A DNA stretch of 64,000 bases from Atribacterota bacterium (GTDB lineage: Bacteria > Atribacterota > Phoenicimicrobiia > Phoenicimicrobiales > Stramentimicrobiaceae). Below are positions 31,321 through 52,432 of this stretch, one piece after another (the stretch's first letter is position 1; each line of letters opens with the position of its first letter). A program made the translations under genes and the position numbers. The stretch covers positions 32,001 to 96,000 of the forward strand of contig JAXGNR010000006.1 of the NCBI GenBank assembly GCA_040767965.1, written 5' to 3'. A model generated the notes under the pieces. That model saw only the letters and a list, made by a program, of their open reading frames with translations. It was not told the DNA's origin and searched no databases.

Positions 31321-32260
31321 CTAGTAAGAATTATTTCTTTTTTTACCATAAGCATATACAACATTAAGAGTCAGTTTATTAACATTATTTTCCTTGTGTA
31401 ACATTTTTTTTTATTTTTTCCATAATAACAGGCAAATCTTTAACTGGAATTGAGGCTGACCAAAAATTAGCAGATGAAGATGCTGTAAAATTAAACATTT
31501 CAGATCCATTCCTGTGGCAGTCTTCCCAGGTTGATTGTTTTGTTATTATTTCTGTCAACTCTTCGTTTTGATAAAATTCAATCATTTGTGAACAAGTTCT
31601 AGGCCAAAAAGCTACCCTATAACCGAGAATATATTTTTTTGGAACAATATCAACTATTGTTTTGATAAATTCCAGATAGTGTTTGGGACCATGAGTTGCT
31701 AAAGCAATAATACCTCCCGGCTTAACCAATCTGACTATTTCTCTAAGCATTCTCTCCTGGTTTGGCACTAGACCAAATACCATGCTGGACAAAATAATAT
31801 CAAAAAAATTATCCTCAAAAGGAAGATTTTCAGCATCAGCCACTTTGTTTCAATTAAATTTAAAGGATAGCCATTAGTCTGAATTTTTTTCTTTTCAAAT
31901 CTCTATCATAAATTCAGATATATCTACTGCTGCTATTTTTTAGCTCCACCTGCTATTAACATCATGGATAAGATCCTTTAAGGCAACCTAAATCTAAAAT
32001 ATATTTATCTTTAATGTTAATGTTTTCTAATAATTCTCTTGCTATTTTATTGTAATGATTAAAAGCATACAGATCATAATATTTGACATCTTCTGTTATT
32101 TTTCCATTATAAGAATCTTCTGTTCTTTCTTTCATTATTGAAGTATTTTTAATACTTCCATTGATAAAGGAAAAATATTACTTATGTTTAAAATAACTCT
32201 TTCCAGTAATGGCAATTCTCCAGTCCAAAAATATCCGGGGTTTTTCTTATATTTTTTCAT
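31321..32260 (-). pseudogene. Class I SAM-dependent methyltransferase, fragmented
   Basis: ADAENLPFEDNFFD and RLVKPGG motifs; upstream ILDLG and AVDISE pieces broken by indels. Confidence 0.78.
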
Positions 32261-47923: not shown

Positions 47924-48184
47924 ATGAAAAAAATCTATAGGTCAAGAAAAGACAGTAAAATTGCTGGAGTATGTGGTGGGATCGCTGAATATTTTAAAGT
48001 TGACCCCACCATCATAAGGCTTTTAGCTGTACTGACAGTTTTCTTTGGAGGCGGAGGAATCGTTGCCTATATAATTGCCTGGATTATCATTCCCCTGGAG
48101 CCTTTAGAAGAAAACACTTCTAGTTTTAAAAAAACTGAAAACACAGTTGATGCTGAAATTATTGATGATGAAGAACAAAAATAA
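47924..48184 (+). CDS. pspC: PspC domain protein
   Basis: [27 protein letters not shown]. Confidence 0.93.
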
Positions 48185-48186
48185 AC

Positions 48187-49372
48187 TTATTTATTTTTGT
48201 CTAGAACATATTGGGCCAATACTGCAATACCATACGGTAAGGCATCATCATCAAAATTAAATCTATTGCTATGACCAGGCATCACTTTATTTCCAGGAGC
48301 GGTAACACCCAGTCTCAACATAGCTGATTTAGAAACTTTTTCCATAAAGAAAGAAAAATCTTCTGAGCCCATTCTGGGAGTTGGCAATTCAACTATATAG
48401 CCCTCTCCTAAAGCTTTGTTAGCTGCATCAGTTAACTCTTTTATCGTATCAGGATGGTTTACGGTACTGGGAACACCGAAGATATAATCAAATTCATAAT
48501 TACACCCAAAAGCTTTAGAAATATTTTTAATGATTTTTTCCATTTTTGCTCCTACTTCTTCTCTCACTTTGGGATTATGACATCTTACAGTACCTTGTAA
48601 GAGTTATTTCTTCTGGAATAATATTAAAAGCAGTTCCTCCATGTATAGTACACACAGAGATTACTATACTATCAAAAGCATTTATCTGTCTGCTAACTAT
48701 TCCCTGTAAAGCAACTACTAACTGTGAGGCAGTTAAAACAACATCATTTGTTTGATGAGGTAGTGCACCATGACCTCCATTTCCGGTGATTTTAATATTG
48801 AATTTATCTCCAGAAGCATGAAATGTACCAATCCAGGTGCCTATTTTCCCTGTGTCCAAATAAGGATCTGCATGCAAAGAAACTATATTATCCACTTCCG
48901 GATTTTCTAACACTCCTGCTTCTACCATTACTTTTGCTCCAGTTAGTATTTCCTCAGCTGGTTGAAATACAAACTTTACAATACCAGAAAACTGATCCTT
49001 CATTGAACTTAACAGCTTGGCTATTCCCAACAATATGGCAGTATGTCCATCATGGCCACATGCATGCATAACACCTTTGTGAACAGATTTATAAGGAATG
49101 TCATTTATTTCCTCTATCGGGAGTGCATCTATATCTGCTCTAATTGCTGTTACCACAGGAGAACCTTTTTTATTTCCTTTTAGAACTCCTAAAACGCCAG
49201 TCTCCATATCAATAGGGACAATTTCTACTCCAAAACTTTCCAGTTCTTTTTTTATAAGTTCAGCAGTTTTATATTCTTTCATTCCAAGTTCTGGATGCTG
49301 ATGAAGTTCTCTGCGTATTTTTGTCGAATAATCCTTTAATTCTATTGCTTTTTGAAAAATATCATTTCCCAA
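48187..49372 (-). pseudogene. M20D amidohydrolase, one frameshift near 48595
   Basis: RRELHQHPE, RADIDALP, MHACGHD, FQPAEE and GSEDF motifs; TTG start after GGAGG. Confidence 0.9.
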
Positions 49373-49508
49373 TTGAAACTCCTCCAATCTTTTTTATAAA
49401 TATTTTTTATTAAATAATATATTTTTTTATTATAGCTTAATTTAGTTATTATTAAAAGAATATCTTCTTTTTATGGTTTATATGCTTTTTAAAAAAATAT
49501 ATTCCCCT

Positions 49509-51215
49509 GTTAGTGTAAAATTTACTGGGGTACTTAAAGATACTTTAAACTTGCTTACTAACATAAAAAGGTGTAGACTTACCTAAATACCCATCAAGAA
49601 GTATCCTTTAAATAAAGGAGGTAAGACTACACCTATGGATATTGATATGATAACCATAACTTTTCCCCAAGTCCGAGTAGAAATTCCAATAAAGGATCTC
49701 ACCTTTGACACTCTAGAAGACATGATCTTTGACATGATGCAAAAATTGCCCAGATGGTCTTTACCAAAGTGCTCTCTGATATTGATGACTACCTGCGCAA
49801 GAACAGAAGACGTGGAAAACTGAAAAATACCGGTAAAAGAAGCAAAACCTTCTTAACCCGTTTTGGTGATGTCTCCTTTTTCCCGCACCCGTTACCTTGA
49901 GAAGACCGGTAAAGCCCAATACCTGTTGGATGAGGCTCTTTCTACCATCAAAAACCAGCGGATCAGCCTTTCCCGTGCCATGACCGAGTGTTTACTTGCC
50001 AGCTTATCTTCCTACCCGCGGGAAGTGGTAGGCCAAACCAAGCTTTACTGGGTCATACCCGCAGCCATGAGTCTATACGCAAAAACGTACTATACAGGCT
50101 AGGCTGATCATCGAACATGAAAAAAGAGACTACAGCAGCTGGAGGAATCTGGATATTTCCGCAAAAGAAGCACCGGATGTTGTCTATACCGAAGCTGATG
50201 CCACCTATCTCAAACTACAGAAACCGGAAAAAGACAAAAAGCTGGAAGTCAAAATCGGGATCGGTTATTGTGGTAAGGAAAAATCGTTATTCCAGCGGTA
50301 ATTCCCAAAGACTGAAAGAAAAGTTCCTCTACCTGGGTACCGGCAAGAATTTTATGTATAACTTTAGCCTAAGAGCAGAAGAACTAAACATCTCCCAATC
50401 TAAAAAGCAGTACTTCAGGGCAGACGGAGACAAGTGGATCACCTCGGAATCCGTGACTACTTCCCTTCTGCCACTTATCTGCTTTGCCGTTTTCACCTGA
50501 ACAAACGCCTCGAGAGCTCTTCCGGGCAATAAGACCCAGCAGAAGCTGATCAAGAAGCTTACTTTTATCCGAGCCGGATTGATGAAGCCCTAGCCAGGAT
50601 TGACAATCTCTTGGTAGTCTCTTCTGAGCCAAAACAGAAAAAGCTTTTGGCAGACTTTACTCCTATATAGCGAACAACCGCCAGGGGATCAATCAGGCAA
50701 CTCTAAAGGACAAGGACATCGCCAAAACAGGAGCGATTGAGTCAATGTCAAACTGGCCATTGCTAACCGCTTTAAAAAGCGGGGCAGAAGCTGGAGCAAA
50801 AAGGAGCATTCTCTTTACTGAAGGTAAAAAAACCATTCAATGGCAAGTGGGGATTCCTGGTGGGGCAAAGAACCATCCTATCAAGATAACACCACTTAAA
50901 CCACCCTTATCAGCATCTTCTTTTACCAAAGAAGTTTCTTCTTCCCAGTAATCCAGGCTAAGATCCCGGCCTTGGATGGACCGAATCGGGATAAACCCTG
51001 GGTAGGTGTTTAAAGTAATACCAATTAGAGCTTGTGTAATTAAATGAAAAAATTTAAAAAAGCATATTTCGTATTTATGACTGTAAATTAAATAAAAGAA
51101 GGGTATTTGATGTGTATTAAAACTAATATAGTCTTTTCAAATCTGTAGGTAGCTCTGCCTTAAACCATAAACATTTTGGCAGTGGAAAAAGTACCTACAA
51201 GAATTTGACACAGAC
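49509..51215 (+). mobile_element. ISLre2-family (UPF0236) insertion sequence with a fragmented transposase
   Basis: 9-bp direct repeat TATTCCCCT at 49500-49508 and 51216-51224; imperfect TIRs GTTAGTGTAAAATT..GGTACTT / GTCTGTGTCAAATT..GGTACTT; higher GC; T.FG, EADA, DGDKWI, C.FH and GAIES fragments. Confidence 0.88.
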
Positions 51216-51231
51216 TATTCCCCTGAAAGAC

Positions 51232-51259
51232 TTGACATTATAATTAACAATGTTATAAT
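51232..51259 (+). promoter_or_regulatory. Consensus sigma70 promoter with extended -10
   Basis: TTGACA-16-TATAAT with TG at -15/-14. Confidence 0.8.
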
Positions 51260-51265
51260 ACTATC

Positions 51266-51354
51266 TGGTTTGATGAAAATAAACCATTAAATATTCTTTT
51301 CATTTTTATACCTCCTTTCAAACCCGCTTTGTTTTAAAACAAAGCGGGTTTTTT
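51266..51354 (+). ncRNA. Candidate ~90-nt small RNA with an anti-SD/anti-AUG segment
   Basis: Promoter, 5' hairpin TGGTTT/AAACCA, TTTTCATTTTTATACCTCCTTT, then a terminator; no sense-strand ORF. Confidence 0.6.
51320..51354 (+). terminator. Rho-independent terminator
   Basis: Perfect palindrome AAACCCGCTTTGTTTTAAAACAAAGCGGGTTT plus T tail. Confidence 0.85.
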
Positions 51355-51478
51355 AATTTCAATTAAAATCAAACGTATCTATGGAAAGTTTTTCTTAAAT
51401 TGTTGGAAATAATTTGATGATAAAAAATAAAATTATTATATGAAGATATTTTATAGGATATTCTAAAGAAAATTATTT

Positions 51479-52432
51479 TTACTTTTTTCTTAAAATACTA
51501 TTTATCCAGTTAAGAATAACATCAAAAACAGGGTGATCCGTTTTACCCAGATCATAATCAATTGAAACATGATTCTCTTCAGAGAAATAATGGATATTTA
51601 CATTGTAATTATATTTATGTAGATTGTTATAAAAAGCCTTGTTGACATTTTTAGAAACTTCCCGATCGCCAGCTACCAATAAAAAAAATGAAGGCGGAGT
51701 TAGCCCTTCTTTGATGTAGTTTATAGGAGATGCGCTTTCCAAATCCTGTATTTTATCACCAAAAACCCATGAAAATAAAAACTGGTTTTCTGGCTCGGCT
51801 GCAAATAATGAAGGAAGATGATATGCTGCACTGTCCAGACCAATTACTCCAGCAATATCTGAGGGAATTAAATCAAATTCAGCAAGATATTTTTCATTTA
51901 AAGCAATTAAAGCGGCTAAATGCCCTCCCGCTGAATGTCCAAGAATAAATATCTGCTTTGGATTTCCACTATAATAATTGATATTTTTCTTAACCCAGTA
52001 AAATGCACGGGCAACATCAACAGCTTGGGCGGGAAATTGATTATCTGGAGAAAGTCTGTAGTTTATACTTACATAAATAAAATTATTGTCAGTAAAAGCC
52101 TTAGCCTTATGGCCTGGAATCCCTTTGTCACCCAATGCCCAGGATCCACCATGAACATAAATTACAACAGGGCAAGAGTGACAGTTTTCTGGTTGATACA
52201 AGTCTAATAAATGACTGCTATGCTGATATTTCTTGTGTTCTTCTTTATTATAAAATTCATCAAAATAGCTGATATCCTGATGAATTTTTATATTATTCCA
52301 TACTATTTCTTGAGAAAATACAGGTAATGTAAAAATAAAGAAAAACAATATGCAGAATATTTGCAAAAAAACAAATAATTTACCACAGGCAGAATTAGTT
52401 TCCACCTGTGGTAAAAAAATATTATTCTTCAT
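51479..52432 (-). CDS. Alpha/beta hydrolase (HSL-like esterase) with an N-terminal hydrophobic segment
   Basis: HGGSW, NYRL, GHSAG and catalytic His region ENHVS. Confidence 0.9.
   Translation of the reverse strand: MKNNIFLPQVETNSACGKLFVFLQIFCILFFFIFTLPVFSQEIVWNNIKIHQDISYFDEFYNKEEHKKYQHSSHLLDLYQPENCHSCPVVIYVHGGSWALGDKGIPGHKAKAFTDNNFIYVSINYRLSPDNQFPAQAVDVARAFYWVKKNINYYSGNPKQIFILGHSAGGHLAALIALNEKYLAEFDLIPSDIAGVIGLDSAAYHLPSLFAAEPENQFLFSWVFGDKIQDLESASPINYIKEGLTPPSFFLLVAGDREVSKNVNKAFYNNLHKYNYNVNIHYFSEENHVSIDYDLGKTDHPVFDVILNWINSILRKK

Follow-up and report, generated by a model that had tools for sequence, protein, structure and literature searches.

The 64,000-nucleotide stretch of Atribacterota DNA analyzed here (positions 32,001 to 96,000 of contig JAXGNR010000006.1, GenBank assembly GCA_040767965.1; hereafter the window) carries a short unit, designated sRNA1, which is strongly supported by sequence comparison as an unannotated gene for a small non-coding RNA (sRNA). 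We read the unit in this way because its plus-strand promoter is kept among relatives, the core of the predicted RNA is invariant and the terminator covaries, whereas the flanks are unconserved. The core is antisense to a complete translation initiation region. We therefore looked upon sRNA1 as a regulator, and consider it somewhat probable that it acts as a ~90-nucleotide (nt), trans-acting, Hfq-independent repressor of strong initiation regions, probably of many, with a bias towards those of exported proteins.

Anatomy of the sRNA1 unit

The features of the unit are listed in Table 1. A first-pass annotation, made from the letters of the window alone, had described a consensus promoter with an extended TG, a transcript of ~90 nt with a 5' hairpin, an A/U-rich middle and a terminator with a U tail, and a middle segment complementary to a Shine-Dalgarno (SD) sequence, spacer, AUG and first codons. 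The promoter could be read directly from the sequence, the layout agreed with it, and the complement of the core indeed comprised an SD, a 7-nt spacer, an AUG and the codons that follow. By consensus scan, the promoter matched sigma-70 at 12/12 positions and had an extended -10 element (TGnTATAAT). A 6-kb scan returned 26 promoter-like sites, as against 22.4 ± 4.8 in shuffled sequences, and the sRNA1 promoter was the sole 12/12 match. On both strands of the whole 2.33-Mb assembly there were 28 perfect TTGACA-N16-18-TATAAT sites, with the TG present in three of them, sRNA1 included. Judged from the position of the promoter, we infer that transcription starts at ~51266-51267.

The predicted RNA folded with z = -5.8 relative to shuffled sequences, and its core had an average predicted unpaired probability of 0.65. 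The reverse complement of the core is a canonical initiation region, AAAGGAGG-N7-AUG. The sole AUG frame on the sense strand has 5 codons and lies within the hairpin loop; in the alignment it was missing from orthologues with a different loop, in keeping with the earlier statement that no protein is encoded on this strand.

Table 1. Coordinates of the sRNA1 unit, its paralogues and neighbouring features (window positions unless a contig or locus is named)
Feature	Location	Strand	Details
sRNA1 gene	51232-51357	+	promoter, ~90-nt ORF-free (open reading frame-free) predicted transcript, terminator
Promoter	51232-51259	+	-35 TTGACA 51232-37; 16-nt spacer; TG 51251-52; TATAAT 51254-59
5' hairpin	51266-51286	+	arms UGGUUU 51266-71 and AAACCA 51281-86; 9-nt loop
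Open core UUAAAUAUUCUUUUCAUUUUUAUACCUCCUUUC	51287-51319	+	33 nt; CAU (anti-AUG) 51301-03; CCUCC (anti-SD) 51311-15
Rho-independent terminator	51320-51357	+	stem 51320-51351, 14 pairs (6 G-C), 4-nt loop; T run to 51354
Opposite-strand 16-codon frame MKRIFNGLFSSNQIVL	51303..51253	-	behind AAAGGAGG-N7-ATG; judged not a gene
sRNA2, second copy	G000 C12:50523-50629 (loci L003, L175)	-	second-best BLAST match; conserved unit
Further paralogue types (sRNA3 and others)	L185-L191 (G013, G010, G008, G001, G005, G009, G007)		same promoter/core/terminator plan
Further paralogue types (sRNA3 and others)	L180, L183, L184 (G024, G040)		same plan
pspC gene	47924-48169	+	Pfam PspC, E = 2.9e-27
ISLre2-like insertion sequence (IS)	49509-51215	+	transposase frame broken into at least 5 pieces
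Target-site duplication TATTCCCCT(G), 9-10 bp	49500-49508/9 (left), 51216-51224/5 (right)		direct repeats

Conservation of sRNA1 among relatives

Homologues were sought by BLAST with window positions 51216-51480 against 40 related genomes. We refer to the present genome as G000, with C-numbers for its contigs, to its Atribacterota family as f1 and to the sister family as f2. sRNA1 was found in 18/21 other f1 genomes, representing nine genera, at 78-88% identity. Similarity was confined mostly to the segment running from the -35 element through the U tail, and both flanks were unalignable. Within the promoter, TATAAT was invariant, TTGACA and TG were each present in at least 90% of 17 aligned sequences, and the spacer was constant in length and variable in sequence. 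The arms of the 5' hairpin were retained around a loop of either 9 nt or 15-16 nt, while in f2 a UUG(C/U)UU...AAGCAA stem occupies the same position. Support for this hairpin thus consists of kept complementarity and the different f2 stem, not of counted covariation, MAFFT having aligned the 5' arm out of register. The 33-nt core was identical or altered at 1-3 positions in the 18 orthologues, and AU.CUUUUCAU..UUAUACCUCCUUU was invariant in 29 sequences from the two families.

Changes in the terminator stem were compensatory (e.g., CCCGC/GCGGG to CUCGC/GCGAG). Pair counting in f1 showed that 4/13 pairs had changed on both sides with 99.5% of cells paired, as compared with 26-57% in slid controls; in the 29-sequence alignment of both families, 6/10 pairs had changed on both sides and 98.3% of cells were paired. 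In neither alignment did any of 500 shuffles reach the observed covariation score. Outside the transcribed part, the conserved signals were the plus-strand promoter and the plus-strand U tail, the minus strand having only UUUG after the terminator hairpin. With a promoter and a Rho-independent terminator of its own, both conserved, and no conserved ORF, sRNA1 has the make-up of an independent transcription unit. The first-pass annotation had proposed an unannotated sRNA gene, to be looked for in close relatives by way of a conserved anti-SD core and compensatory stem changes; the unit is present in those relatives with both, and with unconserved flanks.

These data bear directly on the notion that the unit is non-functional, i.e., a chance promoter beside a neighbour's terminator together with a decayed gene start cut by an IS. 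AT-rich DNA is rich in promoter-like sites, as the 26 versus 22.4 sites per 6 kb attest, and an IS does adjoin the unit. Chance would not account for 78-88% identity flanked by unconserved sequence in 18 genomes of other genera, none of which was seen with the IS at this place; furthermore, the clean target duplication lies outside the unit. We give this explanation almost no weight and regard it as refuted by the conservation in relatives and by the distribution of covariance-model matches described below.

A multi-copy family in one order of Atribacterota

The unit had initially been described as an orphan. A search for paralogous cassettes, which the same annotation had recommended, instead found 2-5 family copies per genome, and sRNA1 is one member of a conserved multi-copy family whose paralogues have in common the core CUUUUUCAU-N7/8-CCUCC. 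The 64-kb window holds one copy. A covariance model built from 29 sequences was run over 86 genomes of the phylum and matched 44 of them, i.e., 20/21 in f1 and 23/30 in f2, with no match in any of 34 genomes from five other Atribacterota families. The sole f1 genome that had no match is 68% complete. By the reach of this model, the family is confined to one order of Atribacterota. A 20-base core pattern was also scanned over one genome per prokaryotic species; among the 120 matches listed, 22 matched the whole unit, and their records belong to Atribacterota/Atribacteria, to the candidates Sediminicultor, Oleihabitans and Stramentimicrobium, or to 'TA06 32_111'. The other 98 of these 120 had the core only or no part of the unit, came from many phyla and were set aside as generic strong ribosome-binding sites (RBSs) on the opposite strand; the pattern was thus not specific enough to chart the family.

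sRNA2 was present in 15/15 loci fetched from the second-best matches. Its promoter has the form TTGACA-16-TGnTAAACT/TACAAT, and TTGACA-16-TGnTAAAAT in the G000 copy; behind a GUUUG/CAAAC hairpin come the CA-rich CAAACCAACCAACCAACAAAUAA and then the core, CUUUUUCAUUUUUAGACCUCCU, before the terminator. The gene lies between a membrane-protein gene on one side and a DEAD-box helicase gene on the other. On the other strand, ~60-110 nt from sRNA2, we also observed a divergent, conserved promoter-like region (TTTTTGATTTTTT ... TATAAT/TATGAT; L161-L175, and ~1610-1680 in L003). After it, and still ahead of the helicase gene, comes GCAAACATATGTTTGC, a nearly perfect palindrome of 16 bp that looks like an operator for a regulator.

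The matches included a third type, sRNA3, in f1 and additional types in f2. G024 had five model matches, the most in any genome, and G040 had four. Two of the G024 copies, L178 and L179, kept the core and terminator with no consensus promoter seen upstream, and may be decayed. Across unrelated contexts, the paralogues share one plan, namely a TTGACA promoter, a hairpin or CA-rich 5' part, the core and a terminator. Their 5' parts vary, which is what one would expect of sibling sRNAs whose target ranges are not the same. Finally, a regular-expression scan of G000 found two weaker promoter/CAT-N-CCTCC/terminator cassettes, C13:21888 (region C13:21800-22010, minus strand) and C14:22677 (region C14:22540-22780, plus strand), neither of which was recognized by the covariance model. 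The C13 cassette faces an opposite-strand frame of 4 codons (ATG ATG TTA GAG TAA).

The opposite strand of sRNA1

Given that the core is the complement of an initiation region, we considered whether the RNA might silence, in cis, a small protein encoded on the minus strand, in the manner of a type I toxin-antitoxin pair or of SymR. The minus strand does offer a perfect SD, a 7-nt spacer, an ATG and an open frame reaching the -10 box, and in some relatives the encoded peptide is hydrophobic (MKRIFNGFCFFILNQRIL, and MKKIVLLFVALV in the sister family). This frame is not kept, however. The ATG lay 44 or 50 nt from the -10 box complement in 13 of 20 sequences and 43 or 49 nt from it in the remaining 7, and the predicted peptides ranged from 9 to 37 aa, having 16-18 codons in some sequences and 20-37 or 9-12 in others. 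An open frame of 16 codons is itself expected by chance in an estimated ~29% of cases at this base composition. The first 7 minus-strand codons were invariant at all three positions, which argues for constraint on the RNA or DNA rather than on a protein. In sRNA2, indels of 1, 3 and 4 nt show that the opposite frame is not kept, and in sRNA3 that frame has only 6-7 codons, thereby excluding a membrane toxin there. No conserved minus-strand promoter was found, and the flank past the terminator was unconserved, its sole conserved signal being the plus-strand promoter of the downstream gene pgsB. The first-pass annotation had pointed out that conservation following the minus-strand frame would indicate a decayed gene start, and had offered the antitoxin of a type I-like pair as an option. 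Conservation does not follow the frame, and the antitoxin option is disfavoured by the frameshifts, the short frame of the paralogue and the want of a conserved promoter. We judge a cis-antisense role to be highly improbable.

Proposed mechanism

What the comparisons establish is the anatomy, conservation, terminator covariation, paralogy and distribution of the family; transcription, the transcript ends, pairing in trans, repression and the targets belong to a model inferred from them. A near-consensus, probably constitutive sigma-70 promoter would make an RNA consisting of a 5' hairpin, an open pyrimidine-rich segment and a terminator. The open segment is antisense to an extended SD, GAAAGGAGGU, a 7-nt A/U spacer, AUG and the codons AAA AGA AUA UUU; sRNA1 carries ACCUCCUUUC, which resembles the tail of 16S rRNA and is the complement of the extended SD. 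In the sibling sRNAs, the corresponding downstream codons are AAA AAG (U/C)UA UUU GUU... or AAA AAG AUU GUU UUG..., which, as translated, are those of an MKK(L/I)(F/V)-type signal-peptide start. sRNA1 would be predicted to pair with the RBS of mRNAs having a strong SD and an MK(K/R)(I/L)-type start, which in this genome are enriched about two-fold for signal-peptide or lipoprotein genes. Paired in this way, it would keep the 30S subunit from binding and thereby repress translation. Repression is proposed to proceed without Hfq. Neither Hfq nor CsrA was found in this 98%-complete genome, a result compatible with long, chaperone-independent pairing.

Predicted targets and expression data

To predict targets, the genome was scanned for ungapped complementarity, and the highest-ranking sites were then folded as duplexes; the statistics rest on 2081 crude gene calls and a home-made hydropathy rule for signal peptides. 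Across the 2081 genes, the duplex energy of the core was -13.4 ± 4.2 kcal/mol with initiation regions versus -8.7 ± 3.3 kcal/mol with gene interiors. Among the best-pairing 5% of genes, 34/106 had signal-peptide-like N-termini as compared with 292/1975 of the rest, an approximately two-fold enrichment (Fisher p = 1.3e-5). The most suggestive target is the exported protein at C4:182874, which has UUGAAAGGA and AUGAAAAGAAUA in common with the core complement. Among the best predicted partners were also genes for small RRM-type (RNA recognition motif) proteins, at C10:101781-102059 and in the C4:769463 region (MEGNKLYVGNLNY... and MQGSKLYVGNLNY...), and the two proteins are candidate RNA chaperones in a genome lacking Hfq. 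Self-complementarity aside, the best genome-wide partner of each sRNA was the antisense strand of its sibling. A match to the SD of the adjacent transposase, noted in the first-pass annotation with the caution that such matches are generic, was just that.

Several observations weigh against repression in trans. The signal-peptide enrichment is modest and depends on the crude gene calls and hydropathy rule. No mRNA nearly fully complementary to sRNA1 or sRNA2 was found in the genome, and the top real initiation region, at -27.8 kcal/mol, is the tail of a continuous distribution. Orthologues of C4:182874 paired at -17 to -26 kcal/mol and so were not consistently extreme, and the best matches in other genomes, which were short BLAST hits of high identity at gene starts, fell in different genes. 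The invariance of 33 nt exceeds the usual 8-15-nt seed and could reflect a protein or ribosome partner. As to structure, the 5' hairpin belonged to the minimum free energy (MFE) fold in 8/18 f1 sequences, whereas in the other 10/18 orthologues that fold paired UUUUC(AU) in the core with the A-rich loop of the hairpin, so that part of the core may be inaccessible. The competing structure may stem from the A/U richness of the RNA, or it may represent a state in which the RNA masks itself. Lastly, no RNA run containing window positions 51226-51420 was found. Of three metatranscriptome runs from the same study, two had no match to the stretch. The third gave a 356-nt contig, at a depth of 2.9, that matched 51281-51312 exactly and continued with the long-loop hairpin of a relative and at least 255 nt beyond the match; this contig shows a relative's DNA or RNA in the library and not expression of the sRNA.

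The extent of the invariance also lies behind a different proposal, in which sRNA1 is a housekeeping-type RNA that acts as a decoy or sponge instead of pairing with mRNAs, its core being the binding site of a protein or of the ribosome (e.g., S1, an RRM protein or an initiation factor). In favour of such a role, 33 invariant nt across genera are more than seed pairing needs, the promoter looks like one of the three strongest in the genome and is not accompanied by a conserved operator, no mRNA target stands out, and the genome encodes the small RRM proteins mentioned above. On the other hand, in all paralogues the core reproduces an initiation region precisely in antisense, keeping SD, spacer and AUG in their native register even as the other parts differ. 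An antisense in the native register is what a pairing function predicts and is not obviously what a protein site would require. We consider a housekeeping role unlikely, although it is the principal alternative.

We hold in similarly low esteem, as a speculative extension, the idea that the family members are not gene-specific regulators but constitutive and abundant masks of initiation sites. The RNAs would mimic the two RNA contacts of the 30S initiation complex with an mRNA, namely the anti-SD tail of 16S rRNA, ACCUCCUUUC, and the CAU anticodon of the initiator tRNA, spaced as in the native complex. Ribosomes would then have to vie with them for the whole class of strongest initiation regions, chiefly those of exported proteins and lipoproteins starting MK(K/R)(I/L)(F/V). 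If this were true, they would constitute a global, titratable brake on translation of the secretome in an uncultured phylum lacking Hfq, and the choice of signal-peptide codons to be covered would be adjusted through the sibling copies.

Comparison with known systems

In Rfam 15, which includes RsaE/RoxS, LhrC and RybB, no family matched sRNA1 at the gathering threshold, and the same was true of the sRNA2 locus. The best scores over the unit were those of PK-repBA (25.4 bits; threshold 45), Trp_leader (24.1; 41) and RybB (22.9; 40), and these sub-threshold matches appear to be driven by the terminator. No match to RoxS/RsaE or alpha-r14/NfeR1 was obtained at E values of up to 10. In a full-text literature search, we found no paper on small RNAs of Atribacterota/Atribacteria.

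RoxS/RsaE and NfeR1 repress many mRNAs at the RBS through short C-rich anti-SD motifs (CCCC, CCUCCUCCC) presented in hairpin loops. RoxS/RsaE of Bacillota and alpha-r14/NfeR1 of rhizobia resemble sRNA1 in being trans-acting anti-SD sRNAs with their own promoter and terminator. In sRNA1, by contrast, the anti-SD is part of a linear stretch, and the antisense extends through the start codon.

The functionally closest described system is LhrC1-5 of Listeria monocytogenes: it too comprises several homologous copies with C/U-rich sites, and these single-stranded sites bind mRNA and impede translation (PMC4132741). Hfq is not needed, the target is a cell-wall-associated protein and expression is tied to cell-envelope stress (PMC4132741). 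For the family described here, a link to the envelope is circumstantial, consisting of the pspC neighbour and the signal-peptide type of the predicted targets. Where LhrC has three short, redundant CU-rich sites, sRNA1 has a single ~30-nt stretch complementary to an SD, spacer, start codon and the first codons; LisRK induces LhrC, whereas the sRNA1 promoter looks constitutive; and the two, from different phyla, have no relation in sequence or in Rfam.

MicL is an sRNA embedded in a 3' untranslated region (3'-UTR), with its own promoter, that represses the lipoprotein mRNA lpp. sRNA1 is similar in that it usually lies directly behind pspC on the same strand, with a common terminator, and in that its predicted targets are exported proteins. 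Whereas the MicL promoter is inside the ORF, that of sRNA1 follows the stop codon, and it is not of the sigma-E type; moreover, the link to pspC has been lost in G000, L025, L026 and L116.

In the Sib/Ibs type I pairs of E. coli, an RNA has the same antisense geometry and the Ibs peptides are shorter than 20 aa. In SymR/SymE, likewise, a strong promoter drives a small RNA whose sequence is fully antisense to the SD and start codon of the opposite strand (PMC1891008). At both kinds of locus the toxin frame is conserved and the toxin has a promoter; neither feature was found here.

Atribacterota, JS1-type lineages included, are abundant in anoxic sediments and digesters and are almost uncultured. 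We would file the sRNA1 group, from its sequence features, as a new family within the known kind of anti-SD trans-acting sRNAs; with it, the phylum would gain its first well-supported family of regulatory RNAs. It stands out in being order-wide and multi-copy, in having one of the best promoters of the genome and in its unusually long invariant antisense-RBS region. The covariance model can seed a new family for annotators, and the sRNAs offer a way into post-transcriptional regulation in a phylum lacking both Hfq and CsrA. Should mRNAs of exported proteins prove to be the targets, regulation would tie in with the adjoining envelope genes, i.e., pspC and those for poly-gamma-glutamate synthesis.

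Genomic neighbourhood

In its usual f1 setting, sRNA1 lies on one strand with its neighbours, in the order pspC, 24-33 nt, sRNA1, 70-140 nt, pgsB/capB-like gene and capC, and the pgs genes are followed on the other strand by genes for an esterase, a desulfoferrodoxin and Dps. This arrangement raises the question of whether the unit is a cis-acting part of a neighbouring operon, either an attenuating leader of pgsBC or a 3'-UTR element of pspC. The order pspC, unit, pgsB-pgsC, with the domains of the encoded proteins confirmed, was seen in 8/18 non-duplicate loci, and in three more (L025, L026 and L116) pgsB lies downstream while the upstream neighbours are different. In most of the former loci, pspC stops 24-33 nt before the -35 element and has no terminator of its own, so that the pspC mRNA probably ends at the sRNA1 terminator. 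Past that terminator, however, pgsB has a conserved promoter of its own (TTTACA-17-TA(G/A)(C/T)AT) in 11/11 loci, from which it follows that sRNA1 is not a pgs leader. This pgsB/capB-capC promoter, (C)TATTTACAA-N-TATAGCATTA, is located 20-90 nt after the sRNA1 terminator (L024-L038, L116) and is missing in the window. The unit survives intact without downstream pgsBC in G000, G015 and f2 contexts, and this survival through rearrangements fits an independent gene. Further points against a cis-acting role are the paralogues in unrelated contexts, the computed folds, which offered no antiterminator alternative, and the pairing of the core with the pspC initiation region, which across orthologues was average to good at -14 to -23 kcal/mol. 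Taken together, these data make a cis-acting role highly improbable.

In G000, the pgs genes are found ~105 kb away on the same contig (C6:187926-189493), and an M20 peptidase gene and the IS now separate pspC from sRNA1. The peptidase gene (48187-49387, minus strand), found between pspC and sRNA1 only in G000, is split into two ORFs in different frames (48575..49387 and 48187..48567), which probably reflects a frameshift in a pseudogene or else an error of assembly.

The IS ends 16 bp before the -35 element and has left the unit whole, as the first-pass annotation had stated, with the duplication outside the unit. The position of this duplication indicates insertion 16 bp upstream of the -35 element, by which an A/T-rich upstream tract was displaced. 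At least four further near-full copies, at 92-97% identity (query range 49508-51215), and several fragments are present in the assembly. An intact copy on C7 (L010:1643-3067) encodes 474 aa and scored 192.7 bits against the NCBIfam ISLre2 transposase, for which the cut-off is 200. We also observed that a 4958-bp contig, C25, nearly duplicates C6:78.3-82.4 kb (a sufD-like gene, a membrane-protein gene, pspC and the IS) and ends inside the IS; it is likely to stem from another strain or haplotype that was merged into the bin, for which contamination is 3.9%.

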